Source: an uncultured bacterium (GTDB lineage: Bacteria; Patescibacteriota; Patescibacteriia; SG8-24; DYFX01). Taken from it: DNA of 64,000 nt. The position numbers were made by a program, and so were the translations under genes. The stretch covers positions 9,655 to 73,654 of the forward strand of contig CALCDZ010000002.1 in assembly GCA_937900255.1 (NCBI GenBank), read 5' to 3'. The notes under the pieces are model-generated. The model was given only the letters and a program-made list of their open reading frames with translations. It searched no databases and was not told the origin of the DNA. How positions within the stretch are numbered: position 1 is the stretch's first letter; each line of letters begins with the position of its first letter. Below, in pieces: positions 54,733 through 63,338 of the stretch.

Positions 54733-56802
54733 ATGACACAGCGCAGCGGACGATCGTTTTTTCACTACCTTACGGTCCCGTTCATCTGGATCGGCAAGGG
54801 ATTGGCGGGCCTCGCAAAACCGACGCCCAGGGGCAGGACCCGCTGGTCGGTTTTCGTCGTGATCGCCGTGGCCGTCTTGGCCGGTTTCCTTGCCTATCCG
54901 CAGGCTTGGGATAAGGGCGCCGACGCCTGGAACGCCAAGGTCGTCACGGCCGCGAAACTGCCGAGCGCCTTCAAAGTCCCGCATTTCAAGAACATCGCTT
55001 ATCGCCTCGGACTCGATCTGCAGGGAGGGACGTATCTGGTCTACGAAGCGGACACGAAGGAGATTCCCGAATCGGAGCGCGCCACGGCGCTCGACGGCGT
55101 GCGCGACGTCATCGAACGCCGCGTGAACGCCTTCGGCGTCTCCGAACCGGTCGTCCAGACCAACAAGGCCGGAGCGTCTTGGCGCATCGTCGTCGAGCTG
55201 GCCGGCGTGAAAGATATCTCCCAGGCGATCCAGATGATCGGAGAGACGCCGATCCTCGAGTTCAAGGAAGAAAATCAGGCGAGCGCGGTTCCTTTGACGC
55301 CGGACCAGCAGAAGGCGCTGGATGCCAAGAATGCCGACGTGAAGAAGCAGGCTGCCGATGCGCTGCGCAAAGCCCAGTCGAACCCGTCCGACCCCGCCCT
55401 CTCTTGGGAGAAGCTCGGCCTCGTCGAGCAGGCGTCGCAGCCCGCCCTTTGGAAGTGGGCTGACGCTCACAAAACCTCGAAGCTCGCCTGGGAAACGGTC
55501 GACGACGGCCAGGAACTGAACGTCCTGCGCATCAATGGCCGTGACGATAGCCAGAAGGAGCTTCGTGCAAGCCATATCCTGATCTGCTTCAAGGGCGCGC
55601 AGGGCTGCAGCGAAGAAACGACCAAGGAGGCGGCACTCGCGCAGATCACCAAACTCCGGAGCGATTTGACGCAGAAGAATTTCGGAGAAAAGGCCAAGGC
55701 GTTTTCGACTGATGGTTCGGCCAAGGAGAATGCTGGCGATCTGGGCTGGTTCGGTCCGAACGCGATGGTCAAGGCGTTCGAGGATGGCGCGTCCGCGCTC
55801 AAGGTCGGGGAGATTTCCCAGCCCGTCGAATCGCCTTTCGGCTATCACCTCATCCTCAAGACGGGGGAGAGGCCGATGGTGCGTTATGACCTCGACCGCA
55901 TCGCCTTCAAGAAGGCGACGGCGGAAGACGTGCGCCCCGCGCCCGATCAGTGGAAGAACACCGGGTTGTCCGGCAAGGACGTCCAGCACGCCCAGGTCGA
56001 ATTCGACTCGACGTCCGGACGGCCTCAGGTCCTCCTCGCCTTCAACGATGAAGGGAAGAAGATGTTCGGGGAGATCACCAAGCGGAATGTCGGCAAGCTC
56101 GTGGCCATCTTCCTGGACGGCCAGCCCATCTCGATTCCGCGCGTCCAGCAGGAAATCAGCGACGGGAACGCCGTCATTTCCGGCACGTTCGACTTCAAGG
56201 AAGCGAAGCTGCTTGCGCAGCGATTGAATGCGGGCGCGCTGCCGGTACCCATCAAGCTGCTCTCGCGGCAGACGATCGGGGCTTCCCTCGGGCAGGACTC
56301 CCTGCAGAAGAGCCTGTATGCGGGTTCTCTCGGTTTCCTGATCGTGGTCGTGTTCATGATCCTCTACTACCGGCTCCCTGGCCTCCTGGCCTCGCTGGCC
56401 TTGGCCATGTATACGGCTTTCACGCTGGCTGCCTTCAAGCTGCTCGGCATCACCCTCACCCTCTCCGGCATCGCCGGCGTGATCCTCTCGATCGGCATGG
56501 CGGTCGATGCCAACATCCTGATCTTCGAGCGCATGAAGGAAGAGGGCAAGAACGGCCATCCGCTCGAATCGGCCGTCACCGAAGGCTTCAAACGCGCCTG
56601 GATGTCCATCAGGGACTCCAACGTCTCATCGCTGCTCACCTGCGCCATCCTGTACGGCTTCACCTCGAGTTCCGTGCGCGGCTTCGCGGTGACGCTGGCC
56701 ATCGGCATCCTGATCTCGATGTTCTCGGCCATCACCGTGACGCGTTCCTTGCTGCGCCTCGTCGCGCCCTGGGTGTCCAAACATCGCTGGCTGTTCAAAT
56801 AA
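54733..56802 (+). CDS. secD: Protein translocase subunit SecD with inserted parvulin-type (PpiC) PPIase domain
   Basis: 689 aa. N-terminal TM, then periplasmic P1 domain. Residues about 265-380 (SHILICFKG...GDLGWFGPNAMVKAFEDGA...GYHLILKTG) match the rotamase/PpiC signature. C-terminal 6-TM SecD core. Confidence 0.85.
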   Translation: MTQRSGRSFFHYLTVPFIWIGKGLAGLAKPTPRGRTRWSVFVVIAVAVLAGFLAYPQAWDKGADAWNAKVVTAAKLPSAFKVPHFKNIAYRLGLDLQGGTYLVYEADTKEIPESERATALDGVRDVIERRVNAFGVSEPVVQTNKAGASWRIVVELAGVKDISQAIQMIGETPILEFKEENQASAVPLTPDQQKALDAKNADVKKQAADALRKAQSNPSDPALSWEKLGLVEQASQPALWKWADAHKTSKLAWETVDDGQELNVLRINGRDDSQKELRASHILICFKGAQGCSEETTKEAALAQITKLRSDLTQKNFGEKAKAFSTDGSAKENAGDLGWFGPNAMVKAFEDGASALKVGEISQPVESPFGYHLILKTGERPMVRYDLDRIAFKKATAEDVRPAPDQWKNTGLSGKDVQHAQVEFDSTSGRPQVLLAFNDEGKKMFGEITKRNVGKLVAIFLDGQPISIPRVQQEISDGNAVISGTFDFKEAKLLAQRLNAGALPVPIKLLSRQTIGASLGQDSLQKSLYAGSLGFLIVVVFMILYYRLPGLLASLALAMYTAFTLAAFKLLGITLTLSGIAGVILSIGMAVDANILIFERMKEEGKNGHPLESAVTEGFKRAWMSIRDSNVSSLLTCAILYGFTSSSVRGFAVTLAIGILISMFSAITVTRSLLRLVAPWVSKHRWLFK

Positions 56803-56803
56803 T

Positions 56804-57718
56804 ATGTTGCGCATCACCCAACACCGCCGCGTCTTCTACGTATTCTCGGGCATCCTCATGGCCGCGTCCCTGGCGGCATGGCTTCTCTGGGGACTCAAGC
56901 CTGGCATCGATTTCACCGGCGGCTCGATGATGGAAATCGAGTTTTCCAAAGGGCGTCCGACGGTCGCTGAGGTCTCCTCGGCAGCCAGCGCTTCCATCGG
57001 CTCCAAGGAAACGGGGGTCCAGCCGCTCGGCGAGAGCAGCATGGTCCTGCGCATGCCTCCGCTCGAGGAAACCGCGCATCGCAAGCTCTCCGCCGACCTC
57101 AAGGCGGCTTTCGAGAAGGACGGCGACACCCTGACGGAAAAGCGTTTCGAATCCATCGGTCCGGTCATCGGAGAAGAACTCCGCAAGAATACCGTCTACG
57201 CCGTCGTCGCTGCCATCTTGGCGATCGTGTTCTATATCACCTACGTCTTCAGGAAGGTCTCCTATCCGGTCGCTTCCTGGAAATACGGCGTCAGCACGAT
57301 CGTGGCGCTTTGCCATGACGTGGTGATACCGGTCGGCGTCTTTTCCGCCCTCGGGCATTTCATGGGAGTGGAAGTCGGCGCCTGGGTCGTCACGGCGCTC
57401 CTGACCGTCCTCGGTTTCTCGGTGCATGACACCATTGTGGTGTTCGACCGCATCCGCGAGAACCTTTCGCACGCGCATCGCGAAGGGTTCGAAGAGGTCG
57501 TGAACCGCAGCATGAACGAGACGATCGGCCGTTCCGTCAATACGTCGCTCACGGTGCTCCTCGTGCTGATCGTCACGTACGTCTTCGGGGGGGAATCCAT
57601 CAAGGACTTCATCCTGACCATGATCATCGGCATCGCCGCCGGCACCTACTCTTCCATCTTCGTGGCCAGCCCGCTCCTCGTGAGCTGGCAGCTTCGGGAC
57701 GAGCGCGCCCGGCGCTAG
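56804..57718 (+). CDS. secF: Protein translocase subunit SecF
   Basis: 304 aa. Starts 1 nt after secD. SecF TM core. Confidence 0.85.
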   Translation: MLRITQHRRVFYVFSGILMAASLAAWLLWGLKPGIDFTGGSMMEIEFSKGRPTVAEVSSAASASIGSKETGVQPLGESSMVLRMPPLEETAHRKLSADLKAAFEKDGDTLTEKRFESIGPVIGEELRKNTVYAVVAAILAIVFYITYVFRKVSYPVASWKYGVSTIVALCHDVVIPVGVFSALGHFMGVEVGAWVVTALLTVLGFSVHDTIVVFDRIRENLSHAHREGFEEVVNRSMNETIGRSVNTSLTVLLVLIVTYVFGGESIKDFILTMIIGIAAGTYSSIFVASPLLVSWQLRDERARR

Positions 57719-57756
57719 ACGGCTCCGGAAAGCCCTTCCTGCCCGGCCGAAAACAT

Positions 57757-57796
57757 GCTACGCTTCCGTCGAAATGCGGAAGCGTAGTTTTTTCCT
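57757..57796 (+). terminator. Rho-independent terminator after secF
   Basis: CTACGCTTCCG-tcgaaat-GCGGAAGCGTAG followed by TTTTTTCC. Confidence 0.7.
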
Positions 57797-59137
57797 GTGG
57801 ACTTCCCCCAAATCGTCATCAATCTCTCCGGACTCTACGGATTGCTGGAAAAGCCCTTGCCGGAACTCTGGTGGACGGTTTTCGTATACGGAGGCTGGAT
57901 TCCGGTCGTCATCATCATGTGGAACGGCTTCAAGGAACTCTGGCTGCTCTCGAGGCAGGACAAATATGCCCCGACGATCCAGTACATCGTGCTGAGCGTC
58001 AGCATCCAGCGCCTGAACGAGCAGACGCCGAAGGCGATTGAGCACATGTTCACGCACCTGGCGGGAATCTACTCCTCGCCGAACTTCAAGGAGAAATGGT
58101 GGGTCGGCAAGTTCACGCCGTCATTCTCTTTCGAATACGCCTCGATCGACGGCTATACCCAGTTCATCATCCGGACGCCCGTCCAATACAGGGACCTGGT
58201 CGAGGCCTCGATCTTCTCCCAGCATCCGGATGCCGAAATCGTCGAAATCACCGATTACACGAAGAACGTCCCGCACGCGTACCCGGATCCGGAGTGGGAT
58301 TGCTGGGGGACCGAGTTCACGCTCGCCAAGGCCTCCGCGTATCCGTTGCGGACGTTTTCGGAGTTCGAACATGCCCTCTCCCAGGAACTGAAGGATCCGC
58401 TCTCTACGCTGCTCGAGACCCTTTCCCGCCTCAAGAAGGGGGAACAGGTCTGGATCCAGATCCTGGTCTCGCCGCGCGACCAGGACTGGGCCAAGGAATC
58501 GATCGCGCTCACCGACAAGCTCAAGGGACGCCCGCCCAAGAAGAAGGCGCCGCCGCTTTGGCAGCACGTCATAGAATCAGGCGTCGGGTTCGGGGTCACG
58601 GCCCTCAACCAGCTCGCCGGCGGCGGGGCTACGGGCGAAGCGAAGAAGCCTGAAAAGAAGGAGGACAACAAGGTCATGAACCTCTCGCCCGGAGAGCGGA
58701 AGATGCTCGAACAGATCGAGATCAAGGCATCCAAGATCGGTTTCGGGGTCAAGATCCGTTTCGTGTATGTCGGCAAGCGCGGCGTCTATCGCAAGGGGCC
58801 CGTCATCTCCATGATCAAGGGGGCCTTCGGCCTTTTCGGGTCGCTGGACGGCAACAGCTTCAAGAACTACGGGAAAGTCGCCCCGAAGTCGGACTATTTC
58901 TGGCAGCGCTGGTCTGCGGACAAGAAAAAGACCAAGATCATCAAGGCGTTCTCGAACCGCTCCTCGAGCGGTGCCGACCGCTTCGTCTTGAATGTGGAGG
59001 AACTCGCCAGCCTGTGGCACTTCCCGCAGGTCCAGACCAAGGCGCCGCTTCTCAAGAAGGTCGAATCGAGGAAGGTGGAACCGCCGTTCTCCCTGCCGGC
59101 GGTGCCCGACGAATTGCCGGGACTGCCTGACGCCTGA
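57797..59137 (+). CDS. Hypothetical membrane protein (N-terminal TM pair + large K-rich soluble domain)
   Basis: 446 aa. TM LWWTVFVYGGWIPVVIIMW. GTG start abuts the terminator T-tract with no SD, so the start is uncertain. Coding GC3 is good. Confidence 0.5.
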   Translation: MDFPQIVINLSGLYGLLEKPLPELWWTVFVYGGWIPVVIIMWNGFKELWLLSRQDKYAPTIQYIVLSVSIQRLNEQTPKAIEHMFTHLAGIYSSPNFKEKWWVGKFTPSFSFEYASIDGYTQFIIRTPVQYRDLVEASIFSQHPDAEIVEITDYTKNVPHAYPDPEWDCWGTEFTLAKASAYPLRTFSEFEHALSQELKDPLSTLLETLSRLKKGEQVWIQILVSPRDQDWAKESIALTDKLKGRPPKKKAPPLWQHVIESGVGFGVTALNQLAGGGATGEAKKPEKKEDNKVMNLSPGERKMLEQIEIKASKIGFGVKIRFVYVGKRGVYRKGPVISMIKGAFGLFGSLDGNSFKNYGKVAPKSDYFWQRWSADKKKTKIIKAFSNRSSSGADRFVLNVEELASLWHFPQVQTKAPLLKKVESRKVEPPFSLPAVPDELPGLPDA

Positions 59138-59142
59138 ACCCT

Positions 59143-61143
59143 ATGCCGTTCGAAGTCGAGCCGTACAATCACGACCACGAGAACGAGGTCATCCCGTTCG
59201 CCGAGACGAACTTCCGCGGAGAGAAGCGGCGTTTCGGCATCAAGACCGACGACCGCCGAAGGCACGTCTACATCGTCGGCAAGACCGGCATGGGCAAGAC
59301 GACCCTGCTCGAGAACTTCGTGCTCTCCGACATCTATGCCGGTCACGGGGTCTGCTACGTCGATCCCCACGGCGACACCGCCGACAAGATCCTCGATTTC
59401 ATCCCCCCGTGGCGCATCAACGACGTCGTCCATTTCAATCCGGCCGACATGGATTTCCCGGTCGGTTTCAACATTCTCGAGATTTCCAACGAGAACCAGA
59501 AGCACTTGGTCGCCTCCGGGCTGATGGGCGTCTTCAAGAAGATCTGGCCCGACGTCTGGTCGGCGCGCATGGAATACATCCTGCTCAACTGCGTGCAGGC
59601 GCTGCTCGACACGCCCGGCTCGACCCTTCTCGGCATCAGCCGCATCCTTGCCGACAAGGATTTCCGGAAGAAGATCGTCGAGAACGTGAAGGATCCGGTC
59701 GTCAAGGGTTTTTGGGTCAACGAGTTCGCCAAGTACACCGACAAGTTCGCTTCGGAAGCCATCGCTCCCGTCCAGAACAAGGTCGGACAGTTCCTGTCGA
59801 ATACCGTCATCCGCAACATCGTCGCGCAGTCGAAGTCGACCATCGACCTGCGCAAGATCATGGACACGCGCAAGATCCTGATCGTCAACCTCTCGAAAGG
59901 CCTGGTCGGAGAGGACTCGAGCAAGCTGCTCGGCGGCATGCTCATCACGCGCCTCCAGCTGGCCGCCATGGAACGCGTCGACATGATGGAAAAGGATCGT
60001 CAGGATTTCTACCTGTACGTCGACGAGTTCCAGAACTTCGCGACCGAATCGTTCGCCAACATCCTGTCGGAAGCCCGCAAGTACCGCCTGGCGCTCATCA
60101 CGGCCCATCAGTACATCGAGCAGCTGGAGGAGGAAGTGGCGGCCGCCGTCTTCGGCAACGTCGGCACCATCATCGCGTTCCGCGTCGGCGCGAACGATGC
60201 CCAGCAGCTCGCCAAGGAGTTCGCGCCGACCTTCGAGGAGACCGGCGAGGATTTCATCAACCTGGCGAAGTTCGAGATCTACCTGAAACTGATGATCGAC
60301 GGCGTGGCGTCGACGCCCTTTTCCGCGAAGTCGTTGCCGCCGATCGCGAAACGCACCGACAGCCGTGCCAAAGTCGTGGCGGCTTCGCGCGAGCGGTATG
60401 CCATCACGCGCGTCGAGATCGAGAAGAAGGTCAACGCATGGGCCGGGTTCGACGAGGAGACCGGGACGTTCATCGGCAAGCCTTCGGCTTCAGGAACCTC
60501 TTCGGGCGGCGATTCTTTCGGCTCCGATCCCGAACGGCAATACAAAGCCGCCTGCTCGCGGTGCGGCAAGGAACTGCATCTCAAGTTCCCTCCGGATCCG
60601 TCCAGGCCGTTCTATTGCAAGGAGTGCCTTCCGCTCGCGCGTGCCGAAGCGGCCGCTGCACCGCGGGTGCCGCAACCCTCAAGGCCTCCGGTTCCGGTCC
60701 GTCAGCCGGCGCCCATGACCCGGCCGCCGAACTCAGCCGTCGCTCCGGTGCCCGCACCGGCGAAACCGGTCGCGCCGCCGCCTCGCGCCGTGAGCCCTGC
60801 CTCATCCGCAGCTCCGGCGAAAACACCCGCCGTTTCGCCGAAGGCGACCGACGCGAGACCACCAGCCCCCCCGAAACCTCCCGTCCAAAAAACGGCTCCA
60901 TCTCCGCGCCCGCTCCCTCCCGCCCCGAAACCCGGCATGTTCGAGGGGAAGATCCGTCTCGTGCAGGAATCCGAACCCGAGAGCGCAGCGGTCGGCAAGC
61001 AGGAAAATCCTCCCTCACCGGCCCCTCCGAAAATCTCACCGCCCCCGGTCCCGCCCGTCCAATCGAGCGCTCCCTCCGTTCCGAGGGCGCTGAAGCCCGG
61101 CGAAAGCGTCAGGTTCGATGAGGAAGGGAAAAGCCCCGTTTGA
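59143..61143 (+). CDS. T4CP/VirD4-TraD-like (HerA-FtsK superfamily, DUF87-type) P-loop ATPase with C-terminal zinc ribbon and Pro/Ala-rich tail
   Basis: Walker A YIVGKTGMGKTTL. YVDPHGD (T4CP-like DPxGD). Walker B LYVDEFQNF. CSRCGK-x19-CKEC zinc ribbon. A 160-aa P/A/S-rich tail. Confidence 0.7.
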   Translation: MPFEVEPYNHDHENEVIPFAETNFRGEKRRFGIKTDDRRRHVYIVGKTGMGKTTLLENFVLSDIYAGHGVCYVDPHGDTADKILDFIPPWRINDVVHFNPADMDFPVGFNILEISNENQKHLVASGLMGVFKKIWPDVWSARMEYILLNCVQALLDTPGSTLLGISRILADKDFRKKIVENVKDPVVKGFWVNEFAKYTDKFASEAIAPVQNKVGQFLSNTVIRNIVAQSKSTIDLRKIMDTRKILIVNLSKGLVGEDSSKLLGGMLITRLQLAAMERVDMMEKDRQDFYLYVDEFQNFATESFANILSEARKYRLALITAHQYIEQLEEEVAAAVFGNVGTIIAFRVGANDAQQLAKEFAPTFEETGEDFINLAKFEIYLKLMIDGVASTPFSAKSLPPIAKRTDSRAKVVAASRERYAITRVEIEKKVNAWAGFDEETGTFIGKPSASGTSSGGDSFGSDPERQYKAACSRCGKELHLKFPPDPSRPFYCKECLPLARAEAAAAPRVPQPSRPPVPVRQPAPMTRPPNSAVAPVPAPAKPVAPPPRAVSPASSAAPAKTPAVSPKATDARPPAPPKPPVQKTAPSPRPLPPAPKPGMFEGKIRLVQESEPESAAVGKQENPPSPAPPKISPPPVPPVQSSAPSVPRALKPGESVRFDEEGKSPV

Positions 61144-61163
61144 ACGGGGTTTTTCTCTTTTCC
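61134..61163 (+). terminator. Rho-independent terminator
   Basis: CCCCGTT-tga-ACGGGG followed by TTTTTCTCTTTTCC. The stop codon lies in the loop. Confidence 0.7.
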
Positions 61164-61213
61164 TTGCGCTGCGGTAAGATTCCTGCTGAACTCACGTCTT
61201 AGCTGACGAACCG

Positions 61214-61777
61214 ATGATCGTGGAAGGATTGAAAGAGACGCTCCTGCTCGCCAGGATCCAAAGCGGCGATGAATCGGCGTTCGTCGAGGCGTACGGGCAT
61301 TTTGCGCCGAAAATCTACAGGCATGCGCTGTTCCGCACCAGTTCTCCGCAGACGGCCGAGGACGTCATGAGCGAGACGTTCGCGAGGGCGTGGGGCGTCG
61401 TGCGCGCGAGATCAGGCGAGATACGCCACCTCAAGGCGTTCCTCTATCGCATCGCGGATAATCTCATCATCGATCACTACCGGAGCAATGCGCGCGCTCC
61501 CGTGCCGATCGACGAGGATCTGGAGGCGACGCTGTCCTCGCCGAGCGACCCGCAGCGTGATCTCGATCGGACGCTCGCTTCCGACCTGCTGGCAGAGGGC
61601 CTGGCTCGCCTCCGTCCGGAAACCAGGGACTTGCTGGTCATGCGTTACATCGATGACCTGCCGATCGGACATATCGCTGAACGCACTGGAAAGAAGAAAA
61701 ATGCCGTTTACGTCGCGCTGCACCGCGCGGTAAAGGAACTCCAACAGCTATGCGCCGGACCACGCTCAGAAAACTGA
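61214..61777 (+). CDS. ECF-type RNA polymerase sigma factor
   Basis: Sigma70 region 2 (YRHALFRTSSPQTAEDVMSETFARAW) and region 4 (DLLVMRYIDDLPIGHIAERTGKKKNAVYVALHRA). Confidence 0.85.
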   Translation: MIVEGLKETLLLARIQSGDESAFVEAYGHFAPKIYRHALFRTSSPQTAEDVMSETFARAWGVVRARSGEIRHLKAFLYRIADNLIIDHYRSNARAPVPIDEDLEATLSSPSDPQRDLDRTLASDLLAEGLARLRPETRDLLVMRYIDDLPIGHIAERTGKKKNAVYVALHRAVKELQQLCAGPRSEN

Positions 61778-62574
61778 AAGCCCTCCGCCATGCTCCGGTC
61801 CCGCCGGAGGTCCTTGAGGCGGGCCGACGCAAGCTGGACGTCATCATGGCCGAGTTCCCGATGGCGCCGGGCGGCTTCCGCTTCCGCGCGATCCTTTGGA
61901 AACCGGCGATGTATGCCGCCGCCGTCGCCGTCTTCGTGGCCACGACCGGTGGAGCGGCATATGCCGCGCAGGACGCGTTGCCTGGAGACGCGCTCTATAC
62001 GGTCAAACTCGCCGCCGAGGACGTGCAGGAGAGGTTGGCGCTTTCGCCGGAGCGGAAATTCGTCGTCCAGGCGGCTCATGCCGCGAAGCGATTGGAGGAG
62101 ACGCATGTCCTTCTTCAACGCGCCGGACTCGACAGGAAAGAGCGTACCGCGCGCGTGCGCAAAGCCATCTCCGGATATGAGGATCGCCTGGCCAAGCTCG
62201 ATGCCATCGCCGCGAAGATGGCAGACGGACCTGACGCGCCGCATGAACGGGAGGGGAGATTGAAGGCTGTCCAGGCGGCGGAACGCGTCCTCGACCGTCA
62301 CGTGGACCTGGTCGCTTCCGCCACCGCTTCCGAACCGGAAACCGCCGAAAGCGTGCTCGAACCGATCGAGGGATCGGTCAAGTTCGAGCAGGATGTCTTC
62401 CTCTTTGCCGATCGCTCCGCGCATGGAGACGGGAAAGAGGCGGATGACGCCGCAGGGGCGTCTCGGGAGCTGGATGAGCGGCGAAAGGAACGCGGGGAGC
62501 GGCTCATCGATCATGTGGAACGCCTGCGAGAAGGCCTGCGGCATCGTTCGGTTGAAGCGGTCCACGGCATGTGA
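61750..62574 (+). CDS. Putative anti-sigma factor (single-TM, DUF5667-like periplasmic helical domain)
   Basis: Overlaps the sigma-factor 3' end. TM AMYAAAVAVFVATTGGAAYA. Helical charged C-domain. Confidence 0.55.
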   Translation: MRRTTLRKLKALRHAPVPPEVLEAGRRKLDVIMAEFPMAPGGFRFRAILWKPAMYAAAVAVFVATTGGAAYAAQDALPGDALYTVKLAAEDVQERLALSPERKFVVQAAHAAKRLEETHVLLQRAGLDRKERTARVRKAISGYEDRLAKLDAIAAKMADGPDAPHEREGRLKAVQAAERVLDRHVDLVASATASEPETAESVLEPIEGSVKFEQDVFLFADRSAHGDGKEADDAAGASRELDERRKERGERLIDHVERLREGLRHRSVEAVHGM

Positions 62575-63338
62575 GAAGATGGCGGCATATGGGCACTTTT
62601 GTACGGGACGCCCCTTCCGATTTTCGTCGTCACGCAGGCGGTACCCGATCTTCGGCAGTGCACGCGGCGGCCGGAGTCCTCTTTGCGTTGGTCTTGCTCG
62701 CGAAGCCGCAGGTCTCGTTCGCGGCACCCGCTTCCGATACCGACGGCGACGGTTATGACGACATGACCGAGCTCGCGAACGGCTATTCTCCGTACGGTCC
62801 CGGCAAACTCGCCGAGACGGATACGGATGGAGACGGCTTGAGCGATGCTGACGAAATCGTCTTCGGTTCGGACCCGCTCAGGCCTGACACGGACGGCGAT
62901 GGGTTCCCGGATGGCCTCGAGGTCCTGAATGCTTTCGATCCGACGCTGGGCGGAGGCGCGAGGCTCAAGAAGCGCATCGTCATCTCGCTCGCCTCCCAGA
63001 CGCTGGACTATTCCATCGGACCGAAGCATCTGGGAAGCTTCAAGGTCTCGACCGGTAAGGCGCGCACGCCGACCCCGGTCGGCGTCTTCGCGATTCGGGA
63101 TAAGAAGCCTCGCGCCTGGTCGGCGCATGCCAAGTTATACATGCCGTACTGGATGCCGTTCATCGGTACCCAGTATGGGCTGCATGAGTTGCCGGAATGG
63201 CCTGACGGCACCAAAGAGGGGCAGTGGCATCTTGGGACCCCGGCGTCCGGAGGGTGCGTCCGGTTAGGGGTCGGACCCGCCAAGACGCTGTACGAGTGGT
63301 CCGAGATCGGTACGGAGGTCGAAATAAAAAAGGCCTGA
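62571..63338 (+). CDS. L,D-transpeptidase (YkuD domain) with N-terminal DTDGDG calcium-binding (TSP3-like) repeats
   Basis: Catalytic HxxxxS/TxGC: HLGTPASGGCVRL. Three D-x-D-G-D-G repeats. Signal peptide. Start may be at M 62589. Confidence 0.8.
   Translation: MRRWRHMGTFVRDAPSDFRRHAGGTRSSAVHAAAGVLFALVLLAKPQVSFAAPASDTDGDGYDDMTELANGYSPYGPGKLAETDTDGDGLSDADEIVFGSDPLRPDTDGDGFPDGLEVLNAFDPTLGGGARLKKRIVISLASQTLDYSIGPKHLGSFKVSTGKARTPTPVGVFAIRDKKPRAWSAHAKLYMPYWMPFIGTQYGLHELPEWPDGTKEGQWHLGTPASGGCVRLGVGPAKTLYEWSEIGTEVEIKKA

Follow-up and report, generated by a model that had tools for sequence, protein, structure and literature searches.

Two adjacent genes of an uncultured member of the Patescibacteria (Candidate Phyla Radiation, CPR), located in a 64-kb stretch of the contig CALCDZ010000002.1 that we analysed as a whole (the window), very probably encode, in two parts, a type IV coupling protein (T4CP) of the VirD4/TrwB class, which in these bacteria would be made as separate subunits. 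The first gene encodes a membrane protein of the Pfam family DUF8128 and the second a soluble P-loop ATPase. This proposal rests on predicted folds and on sequence comparisons, including those with relatives from Actinobacteria, from Bacillus phages and from CPR in which both parts are found in one polypeptide. An earlier note on this DNA had described here two open reading frames (ORFs) of 446 and 666 amino acids (aa), separated by 5 nt and bracketed by terminators, and both the ORFs and the hairpins with T-runs on either side of them are present (Table 1). It had also supposed that the transmembrane part of a coupling protein had been split off into the upstream gene, an idea to which the single-chain versions lend support.

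The ATPase, the DUF8128 protein and their single-chain relatives

The TrwB-type Pfam matches and the predicted fold, together with the absence of any hydrophobic membrane segment in its 666 aa, mark the ATPase as a coupling-protein homologue of the VirD4/TrwB type that has no membrane anchor of its own. The earlier note had recognised a soluble P-loop ATPase of the T4CP clade from GKTGMGKTT, YVDPHGD and DEFQNF, which indeed begin at residues 46, 72 and 294, and had named searches with profile models as a check. In these searches TrwB_AAD_bind (41.9 bits, cut-off 20.5, residues 36-355), TraG-D_C (29.7, cut-off 22), DUF87 (25.3, cut-off 23.2) and zf_Tbcl_2 (31.5, cut-off 27) exceeded their cut-offs, and T4SS-DNA_transf stayed slightly under its own (19.6 against 20.1). 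The clade assignment also holds for the fold. The AlphaFold2 (AF2) model of residues 1-505, based on a 42-sequence alignment, has a RecA-like core with a helical insertion (predicted local distance difference test, pLDDT, 80; predicted TM-score, pTM, 0.77), and its Foldseek matches in the PDB are headed by TrwB (E 7e-9), Cagβ (E 1.4e-8) and DotL (E 1.3e-7), and an archaeal HerA is found among these first matches. Lower in the ranking comes the C-terminal domain of Thermoanaerobacter VirB4 (E 1e-6), and the VirB4 model TIGR00929 gives 24 bits against a cut-off of 643; the CPR ATPase is nearer to the T4CPs than to VirB4, and the systems with the fused form described below have a separate VirB4-like ATPase too. 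The name given by NCBI to homologues of the ATPase is 'type IV secretion system DNA-binding domain-containing protein'.

Walker A, the VDPxGD motif, Walker B and the matches to TrwB_AAD_bind and TraG-D_C are common to this ATPase and to TrwB of R388, VirD4/Cagβ and DotL. In canonical T4CPs, however, a short membrane domain of two helices forms part of the polypeptide, and the gene accompanies those of a relaxase or a type IV secretion system (T4SS), whereas the CPR pair has a separate one-helix anchor bearing a large domain that resembles the VirB4 N-terminal domain, and no linked T4SS or relaxase gene. Membership of the HerA family was considered as well and rejected, the DUF87 match being marginal, no nuclease gene lying nearby and the HerA structures ranking below TrwB and Cagβ.

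In the upstream protein a short N-terminus leads into a single membrane helix, behind which come basic residues and a predicted cytoplasmic alpha/beta domain of about 390 aa. The earlier note was right to call it a membrane protein, and its "one or two" transmembrane helices are now settled as one. The module had been considered a candidate uncharacterised one; its membrane protein, at least, is already catalogued, since an identical public protein bears a precomputed PF26449 (DUF8128) label. The protein had no match in the Pfam copy searched, in NCBIfam, in PADLOC or in sequence searches of the PDB; the assignment is backed by hhalign to PF26449-bearing actinobacterial proteins (probability 93.6%). 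A profile search of 1.84 billion cluster representatives returned 3,281 clusters (50% identity) at E ≤ 1e-3 and 1,103 at E ≤ 1e-30, and the best 150 of them are all stand-alone proteins of 369-691 aa.

In the AF2 model of the DUF8128 protein (pLDDT 79, pTM 0.73) a long helix (residues 21-60) holds the membrane segment and is followed by alpha/beta domains. All ten top Foldseek matches in the PDB are TrwK/VirB4 (best E 3.5e-4, probability 1.0, TM-score 0.37), and those among viral models are phage G gp156 (E 4e-16), related Bacillus phage proteins and the VirB4-like gp155 (E 7e-6). VirB4/TrwK, in which an N-terminal domain precedes a RecA-like C-terminal ATPase, has a two-part layout like that of the pair. 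The idea that the membrane part had moved to the upstream gene thus needs to be qualified: the anchor is found there, but the soluble domain that it carries, with its size and its predicted VirB4-N-terminal-like fold, is not the membrane domain of a canonical coupling protein. At the other end of the protein, 47 of 120 DUF8128 homologues terminate in an acidic tail with (N/D)LP(F/V/I/L), typically ...DGDGLPDNLPFA, and the window protein ends in a degenerate form of it, ...DELPGLPDA. These ends bring to mind the acidic IPF tip of SSB.

The two proteins are found colinear in one chain in Bacillus phages, in Actinobacteria and in a CPR paralogue, and on this basis we read the CPR pair as a split coupling protein. 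In the phage family phrog_5156 (824 profile positions) the DUF8128 protein aligns at 49-356 and the ATPase at 384-798. Its members include phage G gp156, gp129 of the SPO1-like phage CampHawk and proteins of phages JL and CP-51, and they combine a DUF8128-like domain with a homologous ATPase. For gp156 (825 aa), residues 4-322 match the DUF8128 alignment (hhalign probability 97%, E 8.5e-11), and the downstream part matches the ATPase (tblastn E 2e-41), with P-loop Pfam matches at residues 380-715. Unlike the CPR pair, these phage proteins have no N-terminal membrane helix; in phage G the gene of the VirB4-like gp155 lies directly upstream of the fused gp156, and in CampHawk the fused gene is flanked by ParM-like and Replic_Relax genes.

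Among Actinobacteria, plasmid searches yielded a plasmid-encoded fused protein of Embleya sp. NBC_00896 (WP_331738717.1, 812 aa), whose ATPase is about 30% identical to that of the window. In relatives of its N-terminal 400 residues, from Streptomyces, Frankia, Nonomuraea and others, PF26449 shares one polypeptide with PF10412 or PF01935. When 20 such actinobacterial fused sequences are combined in a profile, it matches residues 47-438 of the CPR DUF8128 profile (probability 93.6%, E 2e-7); the Embleya sequence alone reaches a probability of 12.5%, so that the 20-sequence profile is needed for significance. The order of modules (membrane helix, DUF8128, junction motif, TrwB-type ATPase) is the same as in the CPR pair, with one polypeptide in place of two, and the junction motif LNxEELAxLxHFP…EPPxxLP leads in the fused proteins straight into the ATPase N-terminus and Walker A. 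An N-terminal membrane helix, a basic stretch and DUF8128 follow each other in the fused Embleya protein and in the CPR proteins. The Embleya protein has no zinc-finger Pfam match, unlike the CPR ATPase. One CPR genome also carries a fused paralogue (L074:24-2582, 852 aa) with the order membrane helix–DUF8128–ATPase and 43% identity in the ATPase, encoded a few kb from its split pair. As the DUF8128 domain is fused in these chains to a cytoplasmic ATPase without any intervening helix, it should be cytoplasmic too.

The neighbourhood of the Embleya gene, in the order PrgI (VirB3-like), VirB4-like ATPase (P-loop_TraG, AAA_10, TraC_F_IV), fused T4CP, Replic_Relax and NlpC/P60, is a monoderm conjugation or T4SS-type cluster. 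The contexts of the fused relatives point to a T4SS coupling protein as the ancestor of the pair.

Some further homologues were recorded. At one CPR locus a second, ATPase-only copy (L012:8259-9701, 481 aa, 41% identity) lies immediately downstream of the pair. The nearest ATPase from outside CPR (L085, 39% identity, 395 aa) is encoded at 99994-101181 of the alphaproteobacterial Sulfitobacter mediterraneus plasmid NZ_CP081110.1, with transposase and recombinase genes around it and no DUF8128 neighbour, and is possibly a horizontally transferred fragment. In Priestia megaterium pFDU301A, an unannotated replicon of 1.08 Mb, DUF8128-like and then ATPase-like stretches occur in several frames at about 692046-695621 (L086), probably a pseudogenised fused copy. 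The comparison by hhalign of DUF8128 with a haloarchaeal TraM-recognition protein of 1034 aa was negative, and the N-terminus of that protein is not demonstrably DUF8128.

The C-terminal part of the ATPase contains a treble-clef or zinc-ribbon motif and a long tail. The earlier note had placed a zinc ribbon here with a spacing of x19; the ribbon is present, with a spacing of x17 (TIGR04272 gives 33.7 for the window protein, slightly under its cut-off of 36), and among 120 ATPase homologues it occurs in 89, in all of which the spacer has 17 residues. The proline/alanine-rich tail was likewise foreseen, at about 160 aa; it measures 170 aa, with 29% Pro, 16.5% Ala and a net basic charge. In the 120 homologues the tails vary from 31 to 385 aa (median 207), with a median Pro fraction of 0.16 and a median net charge of +9. 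Within the last 25 residues, 95 of these 120 proteins carry xG(E/Q)x(V/I)xF, a pattern that occurs only once in the remaining 81,988 residues of the same proteins. As judged from this distribution, the conserved end is a tethered short linear motif, and a putative docking peptide.

Conservation and synteny in Patescibacteria

Homologues of both proteins come almost wholly from metagenome-assembled genomes of Patescibacteria, the nearest among species genomes being that of a Candidatus Paceibacter (77% identity for DUF8128, 90% for the ATPase). We scanned one genome per species and found DUF8128 in at least 586 species; the best 80 loci were examined, 74 of which are informative. Conservation of the gene pair across related genomes, another check that the earlier note had named, was confirmed: the ATPase is the next gene 3' of DUF8128 in 58 of the 74 informative loci, where the gap between the two has a median of 5 nt. 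The pair is part of a recurrent block composed of SecA, secD, secF, often an RNA polymerase delta-like/sigma-region-4 protein, the pair itself, an HD protein, MnmA and AlaRS. Median identities to the window proteins, calculated in the same 43 genomes, are 67% for the ATPase core, 49% for SecD, 48% for SecF and 40% for DUF8128, and a coupling protein is not usually as conserved as this ATPase core. The pair belongs to the chromosomal core of Patescibacteria as a highly conserved, vertically inherited module, and is not part of a mobile element.

Two possible functional links suggested by this block were rejected. In 40 species loci (L013:8779-9879, L027:8847-9887 and 38 more) a CPR protein of about 370 aa is encoded just upstream of DUF8128, with an RpoD-like sigma region 4 in its N-terminal part and a HARE-HTH domain of RNA polymerase delta (TIGR04567, 49 bits against a cut-off of 42). 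This neighbour (cluster c1) was considered as a DNA-binding partner of the pair, and discarded as a housekeeping delta-like/sigma protein which is absent from the window. The adjacency to secDF was discarded as housekeeping synteny, MnmA, AlaRS, the HD protein and SecA being found in the same block.

Possible function of the pair

T4CP homologues far from T4SS genes have already been reported in CPR. Quiñonero-Coronel et al. (2025, PMC12102498) list 5,713 VirD4-type T4CP homologues in 2,918 of 3,035 CPR genomes, 148 of them near virB4, and VirB4, taken as a chromosomal T4SS, in 2,417 of the 3,035. The published orphan homologues are very probably the same protein set as the ATPase family described here, and the novelty that the earlier note had seen in the module is to this extent lost. 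Three features appear to be new, namely the division of the coupling protein into two subunits, the resemblance of the predicted DUF8128 fold to the VirB4 N-terminal domain, and the putative C-terminal docking motif: the available part of PMC12102498 describes neither a DUF8128 partner nor the split, the synteny with the secDF block or the tail motif, and our literature search found no mention of 'DUF8128'. The earlier note had also argued from the lack of secretion-system genes near the pair to a stand-alone function. The observation held for the ten large ORFs that we scanned elsewhere in the window, among which there is no T4SS, relaxase or pilus gene. The argument does not follow, because most such genomes encode a T4SS elsewhere (the 2,417 of 3,035 just cited).

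The explanation that we favour is a split T4CP that delivers a substrate to a translocon, most likely a T4SS encoded elsewhere, and as a whole we consider it fairly probable; that the pair works with a T4SS encoded elsewhere on the chromosome is, taken by itself, a tentative proposal. The DUF8128 subunit would be a one-helix anchor that would keep the ATPase ring on the cytoplasmic side of the membrane by means of its C-terminal junction motif. By analogy with TrwB the ring would be a hexamer, and ATP hydrolysis would drive a macromolecular substrate to the translocon. The zinc ribbon and the terminal peptide, carried on a long, disordered, basic and Pro-rich tether, may capture an adaptor or the substrate itself; partners are recruited by a C-terminal extension also in F-plasmid TraD, whose tail binds TraM, and in DotL. 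The translocon would most likely be the relaxase-less chromosomal T4SS of most Patescibacteria, which has no coupling protein in its own cluster. In Southlakia epibionticum, the one species in which this was studied by transposon sequencing, the T4SS is essential for epibiotic growth and has no recognisable coupling or relaxase protein (Wang et al. 2023, PMC10633639).

Several results weigh against this proposal. No T4SS gene recurs within ±10 kb across the 80 species loci. The T4CP homologue of Ca. Southlakia, which may or may not belong to the split family, was reported as non-essential, although the T4SS genes are essential, and the authors raise exaptation (PMC12102498); by the counts of that paper, about 500 CPR genomes at the least must have a T4CP homologue while no VirB4 was detected in them. 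For the ATPase, the NCBIfam equivalog and subfamily models (TraD, VirD4-like, CedD) all stay far under their cut-offs, the best being TIGR03743 with 50.5 against 366. For DUF8128, hhalign against the VirB4-like phage G gp155 was negative, and the predicted resemblance to the VirB4 N-terminal domain (TM-score 0.37) is at the level of the fold only and does not amount to VirB4 membership. Finally, DUF8128 has no adjacent ATPase in 16 of the 74 informative loci. In 11 of these (L017, L027, L029, L033, L037, L041, L043, L047, L049, L053 and L076) the context is a different but likewise conserved one, with a delta-like protein, DUF8128, a GT4 glycosyltransferase, a DUF4012 protein (about 850 aa) and a DUF11 protein, and no ATPase lies within 10 kb; the other five also lack an adjacent one.

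Some of these results are better accommodated if the split T4CP has been taken over as a T4SS-independent housekeeping membrane translocase, which would import or export nucleic acid (DNA or host RNA) or another macromolecule, alone or with a different channel. We consider this unlikely, but it is the alternative that survives best. It agrees with the conservation of the ATPase core beyond that of SecD and SecF in the same genomes, with the constant position of the pair in a housekeeping block beside SecA and SecDF, and with a zinc ribbon and a basic tail whose sequences are compatible with nucleic-acid binding. T4CP homologues are moreover present in more CPR genomes than VirB4 (2,918 against 2,417), and in Southlakia such a homologue was reported as dispensable where the T4SS was not, with exaptation raised by the authors (PMC12102498); CPR cells also rely on host nucleic acids (bioRxiv 10.64898/2026.06.21.733656). 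However, no channel partner was identified, and DUF8128 cannot form a pore alone because it has a single membrane helix. The synteny with secDF takes in the unrelated RNA polymerase delta-like protein, MnmA and AlaRS and may be neutral gene order, and the only non-phage single-chain relative with an annotated neighbourhood, that of Embleya, lies in a T4SS-type cluster. A T4SS-independent motor acting across the phylum, which imports host-derived RNA or DNA or moves another macromolecule, would explain both the conservation above SecDF and the presence in more genomes than VirB4, and we regard it as distinctly improbable. In such a motor the polymer would be bound by the zinc ribbon together with the basic tail, and a channel would be the docking site of the C-terminal peptide.

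A role in DNA uptake or segregation had been suggested by the earlier note and is not borne out by this analysis. An FtsK/SpoIIIE-like DNA pump for segregation or division, anchored by DUF8128, would fit a membrane-tethered ATPase of the FtsK–HerA superfamily with housekeeping-like conservation, but we give it very little credence: Pfam FtsK_SpoIIIE (PF01580) scores 14.5 bits against a cut-off of 24 and covers the Walker A region only, there is no FtsK gamma domain, and the nearest relatives are coupling proteins; FtsK itself appears to be mentioned in papers on Saccharibacteria strain TM7x. Defence, also suggested before, would make the pair an anti-phage module with a MADS mad8-like or HerA-type ATPase and a membrane partner, in line with a PADLOC match to mad8 over ATPase residues 18-357 (E 3.4e-18) and weak HerA matches. 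It is highly improbable, given that the module is vertically conserved throughout the phylum, at 67% identity and within a housekeeping block, unlike patchy defence islands; moreover, the DUF8128 partner has no PADLOC match, and the neighbours are secDF, an ECF (extracytoplasmic function) sigma factor and housekeeping genes, with no nuclease, Sir2 or methylase partner. Decay from an integrated conjugative element or a prophage is hardly credible as the origin of the pair: it has relatives in an actinobacterial conjugation-type cluster, in plasmids and in Bacillus phages, and the Priestia copy looks fragmented, but here neither ORF is broken, the catalytic motifs do not vary, the synteny is the same in dozens of species, the G+C content is that of the surroundings and no integrase, relaxase or repeats were noted.

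If the split coupling protein is accepted, the nearly universal orphan T4CP homologue of CPR would be one half of a conserved two-subunit machine, with DUF8128 as its partner and a putative tethered docking peptide. The pair then bears on the case of Southlakia, in which the T4SS is essential and yet no recognisable coupling protein is present in its cluster (PMC10633639; PMC12102498). The DUF8128 partner, the terminal peptide and the zinc ribbon would be handles on what these ultrasmall parasites move in and out of their cells. The Pfam family DUF8128 would also gain a structural and evolutionary meaning, as part of a T4CP subclass (membrane helix, VirB4-N-terminal-like domain, ATPase) spread over Actinobacteria, Bacillus phages and CPR, which bears on the divergence of VirB4 and VirD4.

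Coordinates, flanking signals and neighbouring genes

The positions of the two genes, of the motifs discussed above and of the flanking hairpins are collected in Table 1.

Table 1. Features of the gene pair and its flanks (window coordinates)
Feature	Position	Strand	Basis
Intrinsic-terminator-like hairpin and T-run right after secF	57757..57788	+	13-bp stem, 7 G-C, then TTTTTCCTGT
Gene of the DUF8128 (PF26449) protein, putative membrane-anchor subunit	57797..59137	+	GTG start, 446 aa; ORF list
Single predicted transmembrane helix, residues 24-45, LWWTVFVYGGWIPVVIIMW...	57866..57931	+	Sole Kyte-Doolittle 19-residue window ≥1.6
C-terminal junction motif LNxEELAxLWHFP...KAPLxKKxExRKxEPPxxLP, residues 397-436	58985..59104	+	Invariant or near-invariant columns; hhalign; junction alignment
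Intergenic spacer ACCCT, 5 nt, operon-like coupling	59138..59142	+	Sequence read
Gene of the soluble T4CP-type ATPase, putative second subunit	59143..61143	+	ATG start, 666 aa; ORF list
Walker A GKTGMGKTT, residues 46-54	59278..59304	+	G46, K47, T48, G49, G51 and K52 invariant in 42 homologues
YVDPHGD, residues 72-78, equivalent to VDPNGD of TrwB	59356..59376	+	Alignment to TrwB and DotL; D74-D78 invariant (42 homologues)
Predicted helical insertion, about residues 117-227, at the all-alpha-domain position of coupling proteins	59491..59823	+	AF2 model, TrwB_AAD_bind span, fold match
Walker B DEFQNF, residues 294-299	60022..60039	+	D294-F299 invariant in 42 homologues
Treble-clef/zinc-ribbon CxxC-x17-CxxC, residues 471-495 (C471/C474, C492/C495)	60553..60627	+	zf_Tbcl_2 31.5 bits
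Pro/Ala-rich, net-basic, low-complexity, sequence-variable tail, residues 497-666	60631..61140	+	Composition
C-terminal short linear motif LKPGESVRFDEE, consensus xG(E/Q)x(V/I)xF then acidic residues	61090..61125	+	Homologue comparison
Terminator-like hairpin CCCCGTTTGAACGGGG and TTTTTCTCTTTT, overlapping the ATPase stop codon	61134..61165	+	Sequence read

Judged by their sequences, both genes are real and under selection. The earlier note had allowed for an upstream ORF that is non-conserved or non-coding in relatives, which is contradicted by at least 1220 homologues of DUF8128; those of the ATPase number more than 8000. Long ORFs in other frames overlap the pair at 58992-61121 (plus strand) and 58894-60108 (minus strand), and we consider them by-products of the high G+C content (about 60%).

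The hairpin and T-run after secF abut the GTG codon of the DUF8128 gene (57757-57799), so that neither a promoter nor a Shine-Dalgarno sequence fits between them, and a search of 57500-61400 showed no sigma-70-like promoter. The gene may be expressed by read-through of the secF hairpin or from an internal promoter. As for the downstream hairpin, the hairpin scan gave the minus strand only, and its plus-strand form was read by eye.

On public contigs of up to 161,777 bp that encode the identical proteins, the local order on the 5' side is SecA, NUDIX, dNK, four small ORFs, SecD, SecF and then the pair, which is followed on the 3' side by an ECF sigma factor, DUF5667, YkuD/TSP3, an HD protein, a radical-SAM protein, MnmA and AlaRS. 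Ten large ORFs from other parts of the window were also scanned, SecA and SecDF being identified separately. Two of the ten have no family match, and the other eight encode UvrA, UvrB, UvrC, a Mur ligase, glycosyltransferases, Wzy_C and a beta-CASP RNase.

Two observations concern the neighbours themselves. SecD (54733-56802, 689 aa) contains a parvulin-type peptidyl-prolyl isomerase insert (Rotamase, Rotamase_3) between SecD_1st and the P1 head, and is in effect a SecD–PrsA-like fusion. The three genes at 61214-63338 encode an ECF sigma factor (Sigma70_r2/r4_2), an overlapping DUF5667 protein, anti-sigma-like by its position, and a YkuD L,D-transpeptidase with TSP3 repeats, and this set is kept in the closest relatives only.

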